Below are positions 1,081 through 38,753 of a DNA stretch of 64,000 bases, one piece after another; positions within the stretch are counted from its first letter, which is position 1, and the number at the start of each line of letters is the position of its first letter. The DNA lies in assembly GCA_031374725.1 (NCBI GenBank), contig JANMGT010000021.1:28923-92922 (forward strand). Direction: 5' to 3'. Made by a program: the position numbers and the translations under genes. This DNA is from Lysobacteraceae bacterium. Its GTDB lineage: Bacteria; Pseudomonadota; Gammaproteobacteria; Xanthomonadales; Xanthomonadaceae. Below the pieces are notes generated by a model. It searched no databases. It had not been told where the DNA came from and was given only the letters and a program-made list of their open reading frames with translations.

Positions 1081-4000
1081 TTACTTCGTCTTCTTACGCA
1101 GCTCGACCTGCGCGGCGGTTTGTCTGGTGCCGTCGTTAAGCTCCATCACGAAACCGAGGCTTTCGATCGCGCGCGCAGCTCCCGCACTGAAATCGCCGGC
1201 GCGGATGCGCATCGAGGCCGGGTTCACCGGCTGGCCGGACCACGCCGTGCCCAGCGAGGTCGCTACTTGATTGAGTTGGTATATTTTCACCATCTGCATG
1301 AATTTGCGGACAGTGGCTTTGGATTTGTTAGCTTCGGCTACCGCCCAATCGATCGGGCTGCCGAAAGCACTGTTCTTGGGATCTAATGCGGAGAACTCTT
1401 GCGGCAAAGTAAGTTCGGCCGTGGTCATTTCCAGCGCAACGAGGGTGCCGCCGGTTTCAGTGAATAGCAAGTCGATGTGCACATCCTTGCTGGTCGGGCC
1501 GTTGACGATTTTGCTGCCTCCAGGTAACGCGATGTCGGCAAGATTGACGTTTGGCAATGCCCCTTTCGGACCGACATCGCGGTCGGAGGTGTGGATCGTC
1601 GCGCCGCCGATCAAGATCCCCGCGACTTGTCTGACTTCGTTCGCACGACCGACGACGACTTCCCATTGACCGTGTTCCAACGGCCGTCCCTGCTGCAGCA
1701 GGGCGACATCGAACCGTAGTTTGTCGACTTTCGCGACATACAGCGTGCGTTGAATCGGGTCTTCGAACTTACCGGTACCAACGCGTGCTTCGAGAAGTTT
1801 CACGAAGGCTTCACCGTTCATACCGGCCAGTGGATTCAAACCGGGAATGATGTCTGTAGAAATATCGGCAAGCAGTTCGGTGACATTCTGCGGCAGAGTG
1901 ACTCTGGGATCGCTAAGGCCGCTGAGCACTCGCAGCCTTTCGGCGCGTTTGTCTTTCGCTGTGCTCTGGAACCACGTCAACCAACCGCCCGGCATCGTTT
2001 GGATTTGGCGCAAAAGCCCGCGTGTTGCGCGTAGATCCATGTCGGCCGGCAGTTCCAGCCCCCTTGCCTTCAGGTCGCGGATCCCATTGATAAGGATCGC
2101 GCTATTTTTAGGCATCAGATCGTCGGCAATGAGATATTTCGCGCCGGAATAGACCTTCGGGCTGTTCGAAATCTCGTGGTAATCCGCGAAGAGTTTCGGC
2201 AACGTCTTCGGATCGGTCGTCAAGAACAAGCGATGCATCGCGCTGTAAGGAATGCCGTTCTCGAGCCTGACCGCATCGGCCACGCCTCGCGCCGCATCGA
2301 TCGACCAGCCCGGATTGATCGACGATGCATGGGTGACGAATAACGACAGCGCCGCCAATACCGTGTGGTCCGGATATTCCAGCGGAAGCTTGGCTTCCAG
2401 TTCCGGATTAATCCGCGCCAGCGTATCGCGCATGCTGGTCAGTTCGCTGCCGCTCAGATGCGTCGTGCGTTCCAATGCGGTGGCGGTGGCGGTCGTGGGT
2501 GCGTCGCTCTTGCCGGCATGCAGCAAGCGCGGCGATGCCACCGGCGCGCCGGAAAGCAAGAAACGCGTGCGCCCCATCGGGTCGGTGATCCGCCGCAGGC
2601 TCGACGTGCCTTCGACCTTGAAGCCTTTCTCGGTGTAGCGCGTGACCAATGCATCGACCTTCGCGGTCGACTTCGATGGGTCGTAAACATAGGTATTGCT
2701 ATCGCCGACGCGGGTAAGTTCGATCACCGATTCCGGTGCAGGCAGCGCCTTGACGACCGGGTCGGCAGCGGTCGGTACCACGCTGAGCGGGAAGCTCGCC
2801 GCCTTCGCGTCGGCGGTCGCCGAGGCCGACATTTTCTCGATCGCAGCGAAGTCGGTGGCGGAGATCACGCCGCCGTCTTTGAGCACTTGTGCTACCGCGC
2901 GGGCTTCGTCGATCAACCGGCTGCGTTCGGTTCGGATCGCCTCGAAATCAGCCTTGCTCAACGTGCCCGTATCGACTTTCTGGCGCAGCGTCTGATACAA
3001 GGCTTCGTTCGCGCTGTTGAGGCTCTCCAACCTGGTATTTGCGGCGGCTTCTAACTTGGGTTTAGCGATCGCTTGGAACCCATGGTGCATACCTGCAATC
3101 AATAGATAGGTGACTGCGGTCTGCGTGAGGAAGGACGCGACATCCGGCGGCCATTGTCCGGTTTCGATGCGCCCCATCGTCGCTGACACCGCTGCGACGC
3201 CGGTGAAGCCGATGAGGTGACCCATCAGCAGTTGCCGCACCGGGCTGCCGCCTGCCAGCGGCTCGGCGAGTTTGCCGACGCCCTTGAGCGCGCCCATGAA
3301 CGCAAGATTGGTGGCCGCCGATTTCACCGCGCCCATGCCAGTGATTTCCTTGCCGAGCAGGATCCGTTGCATGGTCAGCTCGGATGCGGTGAACACGCCG
3401 ACCTCGAACAGGGTAGACACCGATGCGATCGTGCGCGCGGTCCGCGCCAGGGCAATGGTTTCGGAGATCGCGGCCATGCGCACCGCCAGCGCCGCGCCTT
3501 CGGTGACGAGCGCGGCGATCAAAGTGATCGCAATATTCACGAGAAGATCGAGTTTGGCCCGATCTTTGATCTTCTCGAGAACGGTGTTCAGCGACTGCTC
3601 GTAGCCGGCGGTTTTTGCCATGAAACCGTCGTAATCGAGTGTTTGCCAGTATTTCGCCAATTCTGTGCGCATGCCGACGAGCGTGCCGGTCATGCTTTCG
3701 CGGAACGATTTGGAGCCGACATCGGCCTTGACCATTACTTGATGGATGCTGAGATTGCTGGCGTACAGCATGAAGATCGCGGAACGGAAGCCGAAGAGCG
3801 AGGTCGCTTTCGACAACCGCGACGCTTCGAGCAAATCGTTCGCTCCCGGCATCATTTCGGCACTCTCCGGAACACGTGCCGTCACCGTGAATTGCTGGGT
3901 TCCGAAGGGCGATGCGTAGGCGCCGAATGTATTCGAGACGAGTTTGAACCCGAGATTACTGTCGAGCCGTGGCACCGAGTCCTCAAGCGTGCTGCGCATC

Positions 4001-37643: not shown

Positions 37644-38753
37644 TCAAATGCCGTATTTCTTGAGCAAGCGGCCTAGCGTTCTGCGTTCTTTTCCCGCCAT
37701 GAAAGCGGCGCGCGTCACATTACCCGCTGCGGCAGACATCAATTGCCTTAGATACTCTTGTTCGAAATTTGAAAGTGCGCAGGCGCGTGCATCGTTGTAT
37801 TTTGGCAGCGATTTCGCCGACGCTGAATGACGCTGTTCCATACCATGCTGCTCCATACCATGCTGCGCTACACCACGCGGTTCTATACCATTCGATCGCA
37901 GGTGACGCGGCTCTTGCTCAGCCGACTCACCCCGTCGCACTGCGGCATCCGTCTTTGCCGACGGCAGCGGCGCGAATGTGATGCCTGCGTAGGGTCGCAG
38001 ATCAAGCGCAGCCGCATCCGACAACAATAAGGCGCGTTGCACGATATTGTCTAATTCTCGTACGTTTCCGGGCCAACGATACTCTGAGAGCCAACGTCGG
38101 CTGTCATCGGTTAACGGTCTGGCGTCCATGCCGTAGTGACGCGCATGACGCTGGATGAAATGCGCCGCCAATAGTTGCGCATCGCCATAGCGTTCCCGCA
38201 GCGGCGGCATTTCCAGCAACAGCACATTAATGCGGAACGCCAAGTCGTCGCGGAATGAGCCGTTATCGAGCATCTCATGCAACCGTGGGCTGGCTGCGGC
38301 GATGATCCTGACGTTGCTGAAACGTTCCTTTCGGCCGCCCACCGATCGATACGTCTTATCCTGCAGGAAACGTAATAGCGACACTTGAGCGCGCTGCGGC
38401 AAGGCATCTAACTCATCAAGGAATAGCGTGCCCCCTTCAGCAGCAGCGACCAAACCACTGGTTGCCTGACGTGCGTCGGTGAAAGCGCCGCGCTCGTATC
38501 CGAATAATTCGGTTTCGATGAGAGTCTCGGGGACAGCGCCGCAGTTCAATGCAACGAATGGCGCTTGGCGCCGTGATGAGAGATAGTGGATCGCACGCGC
38601 CGCGAGTTCTTTACCGGTGCCCGTTTCGCCCTGGATCAAGACCGGCGCGTCGTAGCGCGCCATGCGTTCGATCATCGTCAGCGACCGCATGAACGGTTCC
38701 GACCTACCAATCAGGTTCGGCAGTTCACTGACTGGCGACGGCGCCGTGGGCAT
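37644..38753 (-). CDS. Sigma-54-dependent enhancer-binding protein (AAA+ plus Fis HTH, no sensory domain)
   Basis: GETGTGKE, FVALNCGA, LFGYERGAFTDA, GTLFLDE, WPGNVREL, C-terminal GNVTRAA HTH. Confidence 0.95.
   Translation of the reverse strand: MPTAPSPVSELPNLIGRSEPFMRSLTMIERMARYDAPVLIQGETGTGKELAARAIHYLSSRRQAPFVALNCGAVPETLIETELFGYERGAFTDARQATSGLVAAAEGGTLFLDELDALPQRAQVSLLRFLQDKTYRSVGGRKERFSNVRIIAAASPRLHEMLDNGSFRDDLAFRINVLLLEMPPLRERYGDAQLLAAHFIQRHARHYGMDARPLTDDSRRWLSEYRWPGNVRELDNIVQRALLLSDAAALDLRPYAGITFAPLPSAKTDAAVRRGESAEQEPRHLRSNGIEPRGVAQHGMEQHGMEQRHSASAKSLPKYNDARACALSNFEQEYLRQLMSAAAGNVTRAAFMAGKERRTLGRLLKKYGI
37833..37892. repeat. 15-bp in-frame tandem repeats (x4, degenerate) in the bEBP linker
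   Basis: NGIEP-RGVAQ-HGMEQ-HGMEQ. Confidence 0.75.

Follow-up and report, generated by a model that had tools for sequence, protein, structure and literature searches.

A lineage II contractile injection system locus with a predicted sigma-54 circuit in a Lysobacter-like bacterium

Background

The contractile injection system (CIS) described here is encoded in a 64,000-nucleotide stretch of DNA from a Lysobacteraceae bacterium (GenBank assembly GCA_031374725.1, contig JANMGT010000021.1, positions 28,923 to 92,922 of the forward strand). We refer to this whole stretch as the window and number its positions from its first letter. Three studied systems bear comparison with it. The CIS of the archaeon Halogeometricum borinquense, the only characterised member of subtype IIa (PMC11566945), has two Afp11 proteins, a split Afp8 and divergent Afp12 and Afp13, and its DUF4157 proteins are secreted toxins that are neutralised by partners encoded downstream. 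The Streptomyces coelicolor system (CIS-Sc, subtype IId; PMC10066040) encodes one sheath, two tube proteins and one Afp11, with a contiguous Afp8 and no conventional fibre; it acts in the cytoplasm, causing cell death, and both its effectors and the CisA adaptor have transmembrane segments. AlgoCIS from Algoriphagus machipongonensis (PMC8894135), a member of lineage I, is an extracellular particle with fibres. The disordered N-termini of its cargo proteins Cgo1 and Cgo2 (498 and 1228 aa) act as the loading signal, and the AAA+ ATPase has been implicated in loading (bioRxiv 10.64898/2026.05.27.728243).

According to Chen et al. 2019 (PMC6899500), within lineage II two afp11 genes are found in subtypes IIa and IIc, a split afp8 in IIa, IIb and IIc, and divergent afp12 and afp13 in IIa and IIb, and PAAR is absent only in IIb. 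DUF4157 is a core or cargo domain of extracellular contractile injection systems (eCIS; PMC8213781), and DUF6519 is the fibre anchor eBAP5, represented by 658 genes (PMC12923769). In the eCIStem catalogue, 9 of 38 Lysobacter genomes have eCIS loci (PMC8213781 supplement).

A preliminary description of the window had reported an eCIS locus with its own sigma-54 activator, possibly of an uncharacterised subtype. We show below that the locus belongs to a catalogued but poorly studied lineage, no close relative of which has been studied experimentally, and that comparison with related loci predicts a dedicated sigma-54 circuit upstream of its genes.

Results and discussion

A complete gene set with a lineage II layout

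The locus comprises 27 co-oriented genes on the minus strand, from position 36755 down to 1081, and a gene for a sigma-54-dependent bacterial enhancer-binding protein (bEBP) lies 888 nt upstream of this run. All intergenic distances within the run fall between -16 and 104 nt, and judged by this spacing the 27 genes are operon-like, forming a unit of approximately 36 kb. The preliminary description was right about the common orientation and tight coupling of the genes, which it numbered at about 30; the count is 27 plus the activator. The main domain calls are Pfam matches at or above the curated cutoffs, and additional scans were made with NCBIfam, PHROG and PDB sequences. Matches of these kinds identify the full set of parts of an eCIS-superfamily locus (Table 1), including the dbeCIS core set of sheath, inner tube, Afp7, gp25/Afp9 and baseplate J/Afp11, all at or above Pfam cutoffs. 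On these predicted products the gene set is complete and, by its surroundings, chromosomally resident. Two individual calls of the preliminary description needed support beyond Pfam and received it: the second baseplate J gene, of 639 aa, proved to be a paralogue of the 961-aa J, and the LysM-like protein, which falls below the Pfam threshold, is backed by PHROG baseplate families. The hub, also below its Pfam cutoff, is correctly placed and 66–76% identical in relatives.

The layout points to lineage II. As in subtype IIa, there are two afp11 genes, and afp8 is split into separate hub and spike open reading frames (ORFs). For the afp12/afp13 feature the locus offers only a sub-threshold Tail_P2_I match of the 891-aa protein, together with the DUF6519/eBAP5 fibre. 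PAAR (afp10), also a feature of IIa, was not detected here, and an ORF with PxL repeats occupies the slot. Because the first three lineage II rules intersect at IIa, we place the locus in dbeCIS lineage II as a probable non-Afp system with a IIa-like gene order without PAAR, a placement made by layout rules and not by an Afp11 tree. The non-Afp lineage proposed in the preliminary description is thereby upheld. The proposed uncharacterised subtype is not, as two Afp11, a split Afp8 and divergent Afp12/13 are published criteria of subtypes IIa/IIc (PMC6899500), DUF6519 (PMC12923769) and DUF4157 (PMC8213781) are already published eCIS features, and Lysobacter loci are present in eCIStem.

Comparisons with solved structures place the sheath closest to S. 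coelicolor Cis2 (8BKY, E 1e-98), followed by a second Streptomyces sheath (8BL4) and H. borinquense Cis2 (9EZM, E 6e-86), whereas the PVC, Afp, AlgoCIS and Anabaena sheaths reach only about E 1e-40 to 1e-45. The Halogeometricum system and this locus have in common the two Afp11 and split Afp8 and, less certainly, divergent Afp12 and Afp13, as well as DUF4157 proteins followed by partner genes, which are candidates in the present case. Unlike that system, this one resides in a Gram-negative gammaproteobacterium, has no PAAR and no conserved membrane-anchor gene, and possesses a 375-aa sheath insertion and a sigma-54 activator. CIS-Sc, with the same single sheath gene and pair of tube genes, provides the best solved match for the baseplate J protein (Cis11, 9GTP, E 3e-13) as it does for the sheath. 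It differs in its Afp11 and Afp8 organisation and in its lack of a conventional fibre, where the locus described here combines two J genes with a split Afp8 and a large DUF6519 fibre, and in its transmembrane segments, where no structural protein has one here. AlgoCIS resembles the locus in its cargo pair, one of about 500 aa and one of more than 1200 aa, each built from a disordered N-terminus, DUF4157 and a variable C-terminal domain, and in its AAA+ ATPase. Its gene order is different, its sheath is distant (E 3e-41) and it is not known to have a sigma-54 activator.

Related loci were collected by a sheath search over one genome per species of the Genome Taxonomy Database (GTDB). Sheath identity is 85–86% in three Lysobacter or Lysobacteraceae metagenome-assembled genomes (MAGs) and 70% in a fourth, 64–67% in three Burkholderiales MAGs, 48–49% in Chloroflexota and Pyrinomonadaceae and about 40% in Lachnospiraceae. 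The gene order of the structural region is kept throughout in all proteobacterial relatives, structural genes are 50–96% identical across species, and amino-acid conservation exceeds nucleotide conservation wherever tested. Two Lysobacter MAG loci, L001 and L003, share with the window the rarA-crcB-DUF4124 neighbourhood, its rarA-crcB flank at 81–84% amino-acid identity. The chromosomal site of the locus is thus fixed within this Lysobacter-like group, and the Xanthomonadales-like host recognised in the preliminary description finds its best relatives here. The sequence is almost completely contained in one freshwater-sediment metagenome run and partially in other runs of the same study and in a second study (sediment, biofilm), and we regard the host, on its relatives and on these runs, as a Lysobacter-like (Lysobacteraceae) bacterium of freshwater sediment.

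A locus with so many phage-tail homologues could in principle be a prophage tail module or an R-type tailocin. Short pieces of related loci have been placed in viral bins of IMG/VR, the frameshift ahead of the tape-measure-like gene (see below) resembles the G/GT pair of phages, and the DNA to the left of the window lies outside the stretch covered. We nevertheless regard this origin as highly improbable. The Pvc16_N cap and the AAA+ ATPase, which separate CIS from phage tails and tailocins, are both present, as are the further eCIS-specific markers CIS_tube, DUF6519 and two DUF4157 proteins. Among the window ORFs scanned with Pfam and NCBIfam there is no capsid, terminase or portal, and likewise no TssJLM or ClpV of a type VI secretion system (T6SS), in agreement with the preliminary description; the window also contains no gene for an integrase, holin or endolysin. 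The sole Clp gene is the housekeeping clpA at 57191-59521. Relatives carry the locus at the same chromosomal site, its GC content is that of its surroundings, and in L039, a Lysobacter MAG locus used with L040 for comparison of the 3' region (fibre and cargo), the neighbours beyond the CIS 3' end are non-phage genes (a two-component system, superoxide dismutase and an acetyltransferase).

A predicted sigma-54 circuit

The bEBP consists of an AAA+ sigma-54 interaction domain that starts at residue 14 and a C-terminal Fis-type helix-turn-helix (HTH). It has no N-terminal sensor or receiver domain, and neither do the homologues in any of the relatives. The only NCBIfam model that aligns with it from end to end is that of PspF (TIGR02974). 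Because its 251 bits are far below the cutoff of 443.55, the protein is not a PspF member; by its predicted domains it has the architecture of PspF but falls outside the PspF family. In all 8 related loci with the region visible, a homologue is found upstream of the cap-ATPase-sheath head (among them L001, L003–L007 and L042), with identities of 40–74% in L001 and L003–L007 and 37% in L042, an IMG/VR fragment. The activator noted in the preliminary description is thus a conserved partner of the head module.

A predicted promoter of the -24/-12 type, TGGCCTGCGATTTGCT, is located about 33 nt ahead of the ATG of the first operon gene, with correct spacing between its two elements and an AGGAG ribosome-binding site downstream. 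It is the only intergenic, correctly oriented -24/-12 match in the window, and the equivalent position reads TGGC-N7-TTGC in L001, L003, L004, L006 and L007, amid intergenic DNA that is otherwise poorly alignable. No sigma-70-like promoter was found on the operon strand ahead of the operon. A further exact TGGC-N7-TTGC match on the operon strand, at 16230-16244 within the 891-aa gene, may represent an internal sigma-54 promoter or may have arisen by chance.

Approximately 230–270 bp upstream of the predicted promoter are two tandem copies of the palindrome GGGTC-N6-GACCC, 32 bp apart from centre to centre, which form a putative enhancer or upstream activating sequence (UAS). There is no other exact match to this palindrome in the 64-kb window. 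The tandem pair recurs, again in otherwise poorly aligning DNA, in L001 and L003 with a spacing of 32 and in L005 (Burkholderiales) with a spacing of 34. At the equivalent place L006 (Burkholderiaceae) has a different tandem palindrome, CCCCGC-N4-GCGGGG in two copies; the activator of L006 is 41% identical, so that in this locus palindrome and activator have diverged in step. L006 is also distinguished by a distance of about 3.7 kb (2606-6294) between activator and sigma-54 promoter. An A+T-rich stretch between enhancer and promoter in the window is a candidate bending region or binding region for integration host factor (IHF); no exact IHF consensus occurs between the two elements. An ORF at 36901-37161 was rejected as a gene since it falls in poorly conserved intergenic DNA.

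PspF and the HrpR/HrpS activators are the known systems of this kind: like the bEBP described here they consist of the AAA+ core and HTH without an N-terminal regulatory domain, and they work with tandem palindromic enhancers upstream of a -24/-12 promoter, as is predicted here. The differences are the GAFTDA loop of the present protein and the nature of the operon under predicted control, which is a CIS. No negative regulator of the PspA or HrpV kind was identified near the bEBP. Taken together, the comparative evidence for a dedicated sigma-54 circuit is good but not proof, enhancer binding and control being predictions.

The association of sigma-54 activators with eCIS is already recorded in eCIStem, without discussion: in the supplementary table of PMC8213781, Sigma54_activat figures among the 'shell' domains with weak enrichment (odds ratio 1.59 from 49 occurrences), and the main text names only RfaH, GerE/LuxR and BTAD types as conserved eCIS regulators. 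No paper linking sigma-54 or enhancer-binding proteins with eCIS was found in the literature searched on these terms. One catalogued locus, Lcho_3032-3056 of Leptothrix cholodnii (eCIStem, PMC8213781 supplement), starts like the present one with a protein of about 360 aa containing Sigma54_activat and HTH_8, a small ORF and afp16 (DUF4255). It differs in that it has a second sheath gene, only one Afp11 and an ATPase gene placed at the 3' end, and hence represents another subtype. The presence of the same head module in a locus of other layout indicates that the activator association extends beyond the clade studied here. In L039 (16974-19437) the CIS 3' end is followed by genes for a histidine kinase and for a sigma-54 response regulator of the NtrC type; since this regulator adjoins the CIS, L039 has a second sigma-54 activator beside the same system.

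A putative -1 frameshift ahead of the tape-measure position

The PF12322 gene contains a T9 tract (28720-28728, minus strand) that includes the slippery sequence T_TTT_TTG. Read in the 0 frame, the gene yields a product of 256 aa with a stop at 28698. The -1 frame stays open for 54 codons, to 28564, giving a fusion of 301 aa, and the extension peptide is conserved in every relative. Each of the eight proteobacterial loci has this peptide at an offset of -1; in the two distant loci, from Chloroflexota and Acidobacteriota (Pyrinomonadaceae), it is in frame and the tract is interrupted. The tract is invariant, between variable flanks, in 8 independent assemblies, and for this reason we take the site for a feature of the gene and not for damage. 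It looks like a programmed frameshift or slippage site, from which products of 256 and 301 aa are predicted. In phage lambda (G/GT) and P2 (E/E') a -1 overlap likewise stands just ahead of the tape-measure gene, which at this locus is inferred. In contrast to these pairs, the gene here matches PF12322 (T4_baseplate) and not a chaperone family. The literature searched on frameshifting and CIS contained no such report for any CIS. The next gene, coding for the 450-aa Ser/Ala-rich protein conserved at its ends alone, probably provides the tape measure, as its position suggests.

The spike complex and the PAAR slot

No PAAR was detected by Pfam in the operon proteins, nor in any frame of the gap at 22780-23183, where PAAR would be placed. 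The gap instead contains an unannotated ORF whose product begins with MTCVC, continues with three PxL-rich repeats of 35 aa and ends with CPC, and which lies on a tandem repeat of 105 nt. The reading frame is kept, as are start, end and length, in L001, L003–L005 and L007; one of these five relatives has two repeats. Within this frame, amino-acid identity is higher than nucleotide identity and higher than in the two other frames; an alternative frame of 22822-23187 was rejected for its lower conservation. The ORF belongs to no Pfam or PHROG family, and a homologue search returned only a trivial match of 7% coverage. Because there is no family or database match, gene callers evidently miss the PxL-repeat gene.

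The spike protein has an HxH motif (HTH, within DAHTHP) near its C-terminus, at 23283-23291 on the minus strand, which by likeness to gpV of P2 may form an iron-binding apex. A metal-bound HxH spike tip of this kind could account for the absence of PAAR.

Sheath, baseplate and fibre

The first operon gene, conserved together with the activator, has tblastn matches in L001, L003–L005 and L042, and a similar peptide follows the promoter in L006 and L007. The AAA+ ATPase is a putative cargo loader by analogy with Alg15 and Pvc15 (PMC11495950; bioRxiv 10.64898/2026.05.27.728243). Residues 1-202 and 578-868 of the sheath align with Streptomyces Cis2. Between them is an insertion of about 375 aa relative to that protein (residues ~203-577, window 31453-32577, minus strand), in which no internal sequence repeat or family match was detected and which is presumably a surface decoration.

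In the baseplate, the 891-aa protein is weakly assignable as Afp12-like; for the P2-I-like call of the preliminary description the sub-threshold match is the only hint. The fibre announced there is also present, and it is more likely to be the 1436-aa DUF6519 protein than the 479-aa gene. The C-terminus of the DUF6519 protein weakly matches the YVTN beta-propeller 1L0Q (E 4e-4), and as the protein ends in such a propeller-like region we infer a role in receptor binding. The 479-aa protein combines a transthyretin/CarboxypepD_reg-like N-terminus with a coiled coil and with a basic tail of low complexity.

Two predicted DUF4157 cargo proteins

Both DUF4157 proteins start with about 110 residues of which 73–87% are disorder-prone. 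In cargo 1 the disordered N-terminus and DUF4157 are followed by a conserved C-terminal domain with a second HExxH motif. Its 38 homologues are of similar length and share the C-terminal domain, and H297, E298 and H301 are invariant in the alignment. The AlphaFold2 (AF2) model has a pLDDT of 86 and gave no Foldseek match to the PDB below E 0.5. A homologue of the 188-aa gene next to cargo 1 follows the cargo 1 homologue in L039 and L040, and by analogy with the haloarchaeal DUF4157 toxin pairs (PMC11566945) it is a candidate immunity or chaperone partner of cargo 1. If its role is immunity, bacterial targets would be a reasonable guess.

Cargo 2 combines the disordered N-terminus and DUF4157 with a hydrophobic helical stretch (approximately residues 800-960) and a rare C-terminal half, for which the database contains only 4 homologues. 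The AF2 model of this half has a pLDDT of 63, below search quality. A full-length orthologue was found only in L039, and other large DUF4157 proteins replace cargo 2 in L040; this position would conform to the usual pattern of a variable toxin slot. L040 has, after its large cargo, a small ORF that is absent in the window.

Flanking DNA and feature positions

The right flank contains the housekeeping genes crcB, rarA, lolA and ftsK, an ABC transporter, a subtilase and an ECF sigma factor and, further on, trxB, a FemAB-like gene, clpA, mnmA and hflD. Within it, a small cluster on the minus strand at 49115-52181 encodes an ECF sigma factor, a 323-aa ORF that is extended at length on its N-terminal side, a 290-aa protein of unknown function and a subtilisin-like protease; as far as seen this cluster is unconnected to the CIS. 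GC content drops to 0.56 over positions 1-2000, at the IS66 fragment, and otherwise equals that of the flanks throughout the locus. Scans for tRNA genes and Rfam families gave no features.

Table 1. Positions of the genes and sequence elements of the CIS locus in the window, listed from the activator to the 3' border. Identities are amino-acid identities in related loci.
Feature	Position	Strand	Evidence
Sigma-54 enhancer-binding protein (bEBP), 369 aa	37644..38753	-	Sigma54_activat E 1.8e-60, AAA_lid_14, HTH_8
Putative enhancer (UAS), tandem palindromes GGGTC-N6-GACCC	37055-37070 and 37023-37038		exact match, conservation
A+T-rich stretch, ~110 bp, 60-80% A+T	36815..36925		composition; between enhancer and promoter
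Predicted sigma-54 type -24/-12 promoter	36789..36804	-	pattern match and conservation
First operon gene, 100 aa	36453..36755	-	conserved together with activator; no family match (Pfam, PHROG, NCBIfam)
Tail terminator / cap (Afp16/Pvc16)	35886..36446	-	Pvc16_N E 3.4e-33
AAA+ ATPase (Afp15/Pvc15 class), winged-helix N-terminal region	33634..35889	-	AAA E 5e-29, WHD E 1e-24
125-aa gene between ATPase and sheath	33244..33621	-	present in all close relatives; no family match (Pfam, PHROG)
Sheath, 873 aa	30562..33183	-	Phage_sheath_1 and Phage_sheath_1C
Inner tube protein 1	30068..30550	-	Phage_T4_gp19 E 9e-25
Inner tube protein 2	29484..29963	-	Phage_T4_gp19 E 5e-35
PF12322 (T4_baseplate-like) gene with putative programmed -1 frameshift	28564..29468	-	Pfam E 1.7e-12
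450-aa Ser/Ala-rich protein	27208..28560	-	tape-measure position; ends alone conserved; no Pfam/PHROG match
Two conserved genes, 175 aa and 111 aa	26348..27195	-	kept in relatives; no significant family match (Pfam, PHROG)
Tube initiator (Afp7-like)	25671..26351	-	CIS_tube 27.8 bits, cutoff 27; 82-96% identical
LysM-like tail protein X / gp53-like, 94 aa	25397..25681	-	PHROG baseplate wedge E 6e-8; Pfam LysM sub-threshold E 0.044
Baseplate hub (gp27/gpD half of split Afp8)	24157..25368	-	Phage_GPD E 8e-5, 22.4 bits, below cutoff of 30.1
Spike (gp5/gpV half of Afp8)	23184..24182, probable start 24146	-	Phage_base_V E 1.5e-17
111-aa ORF in PAAR slot, unannotated	22836..23171	-	frame conservation
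91-aa conserved gene	22504..22779	-	59-80% identical; weak PHROG matches of unknown function
gp25 baseplate wedge (Afp9)	22107..22493	-	GPW_gp25 E 6.6e-13
Baseplate-J (Afp11) paralogue, 639 aa	20195-22114	-	no Pfam match; BLASTP to 961-aa J, E 8e-30
Baseplate-J (Afp11) paralogue, 961 aa	17310-20195	-	Pfam Baseplate_J
891-aa Afp12-like baseplate protein	14638..17313	-	sub-threshold Tail_P2_I E 0.047; position; 66-76% in L039, L040
DUF6519 (eBAP5) fibre-like protein, 1436 aa	10331..14641	-	DUF6519 E 2.9e-28
479-aa accessory protein	8879..10318	-	sub-threshold Pfam only; 45-68% in L039, L040
Cargo 1	7152..8801; database gene calls start 8666 (504 aa)	-	eCIS_core E 7e-26
Two small genes, 188 aa and 182 aa	5958..7079	-	188-aa gene conserved next to cargo 1
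Cargo 2, 1626 aa	1081..5961	-	eCIS_core E 1e-19
IS66-family transposase, C-terminal fragment	760..1044	-	DDE_Tnp_IS66 E 1e-18, profile positions 225-283 of 284

Mode of action

The explanation that best fits these observations, and one we consider probable, is a complete chromosomal lineage II CIS under a sigma-54 switch, with assembly, loading and release along the following lines. From sequence and comparison, the sensor-less PspF-like bEBP would bind the two GGGTC-N6-GACCC palindromes, activate the -24/-12 promoter and so drive the 27-gene operon of about 36 kb. What is known of these families suggests that the baseplate would be formed by the split hub, the HxH-tipped spike, gp25, the two J paralogues and the Afp12-like protein, that tube and sheath would be built to a length set by the 450-aa tape-measure-like protein and closed by the cap, and that the PF12322 protein, in two forms produced by a -1 slip at T9, would assist assembly. 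The AAA+ ATPase would load both DUF4157 cargos into the tube via their disordered N-termini, in analogy with AlgoCIS and PVC. The final steps are the least certain: released particles may bind their targets through the DUF6519 fibre and its beta-propeller and then contract, delivering a putative HExxH metallopeptidase and a large, perhaps membrane-active, protein; the conserved small gene behind cargo 1 is suggestive of an immunity partner, which would point to bacteria as the targets.

Several observations weigh against this explanation. The bEBP loop reads GAFTDA and not the canonical GAFTGA (GAYTGA or GAYTTA in the activators of relatives), the window has no rpoN gene, and the -24/-12 core pattern alone is not above chance, with 7 matches in the window where 3.6 are expected. 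An enzymatic activity could be assigned to neither cargo, as there are no sequence relatives in the PDB and Pfam matches at E <=1 are unusable. No lysis or release gene was recognised in the locus. By sheath, the closest of the characterised systems do not work extracellularly, the Streptomyces system being cytoplasmic and that of Halogeometricum membrane-anchored. An IS66 fragment forms the left (3') border of the locus, abutting the last cargo gene, and the element may have truncated the 3' end. Finally, the sequence is contained only in DNA metagenome runs and hence has no expression support.

The last two points would also be expected of a decaying or silent remnant that yields no functional particles, as would the absence of a PAAR gene and the need for a frameshift to obtain one full-length product. 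Against such decay stand the 27 reading frames, all intact and tightly coupled, the structural genes conserved across species more strongly in amino acids than in nucleotides where tested, the frameshift site invariant in independent assemblies, and the conserved regulatory elements. We therefore consider a remnant very unlikely.

A more serious alternative concerns the place of action. The machine might fire inside the producer cell or attached to its membrane, either for stress-regulated cell death, as in the Streptomyces CIS and the thylakoid-anchored Anabaena CIS, or for contact-dependent killing in the manner of the haloarchaeal T6SS-like CIS. The sheath, far closer to those of Streptomyces and Halogeometricum than to those of PVC, Afp and AlgoCIS, agrees with this possibility, as do the nearest solved J, the missing lysis cassette and the PspF-like architecture of the activator, which suits a stress response; moreover, the literature covered contains no proven extracellular member of lineage II. 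On the other hand, no transmembrane anchor is predicted in the structural genes, whereas the Streptomyces and haloarchaeal systems depend on or correlate with a membrane protein. The 1436-aa DUF6519/eBAP5 fibre with its propeller-like C-terminus is typical of receptor binding, and T6SS-like firing across a Gram-negative envelope would need an outer-membrane conduit, which is not encoded here. We judge action within or at the producer cell to be rather unlikely. The lack of an anchor and the large fibre lead us to favour free particles that bind from outside, and extracellular action is our choice by a narrow preference. The name eCIS, as applied in the preliminary description, is accordingly sound for the superfamily, but its 'extracellular' is an assumption, given that the nearest characterised relatives by sheath act intracellularly or membrane-anchored.

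Conclusions

The new elements at this locus are the predicted -24/-12 promoter with its tandem enhancer, the putative -1 frameshift site at T9 and the PxL-repeat gene, each of them conserved in relatives. Neither a dedicated sigma-54 switch nor the frameshift nor the PxL-repeat protein has been described for any CIS in the literature searched. It is tempting to speculate, with somewhat more doubt than confidence, that the Lysobacteraceae and Burkholderiales loci form a clade of Gram-negative lineage II CIS that is characterised by a sensor-less sigma-54 master switch with tandem enhancer, a programmed -1 frameshift and a PxL-repeat protein replacing PAAR.

To our knowledge, most eCIS loci in the catalogues remain silent in culture, with triggers not yet known. 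The overall picture of eCIS is unchanged by this locus, and its value is a practical one. Annotations of every locus in the clade can be corrected for the frameshift site and for the missed PxL-repeat gene, and a compact activator whose promoter and enhancer are defined offers a simple, testable handle on silent systems. If the proposed circuit is true, it should suffice to express a single 369-aa protein in a cultured carrier, a Lysobacter or a member of the Burkholderiales, to turn on the particle genes. Such induction would for the first time give access to the structure and function of a Gram-negative lineage II system and would settle whether its particles are released or act within the cell.

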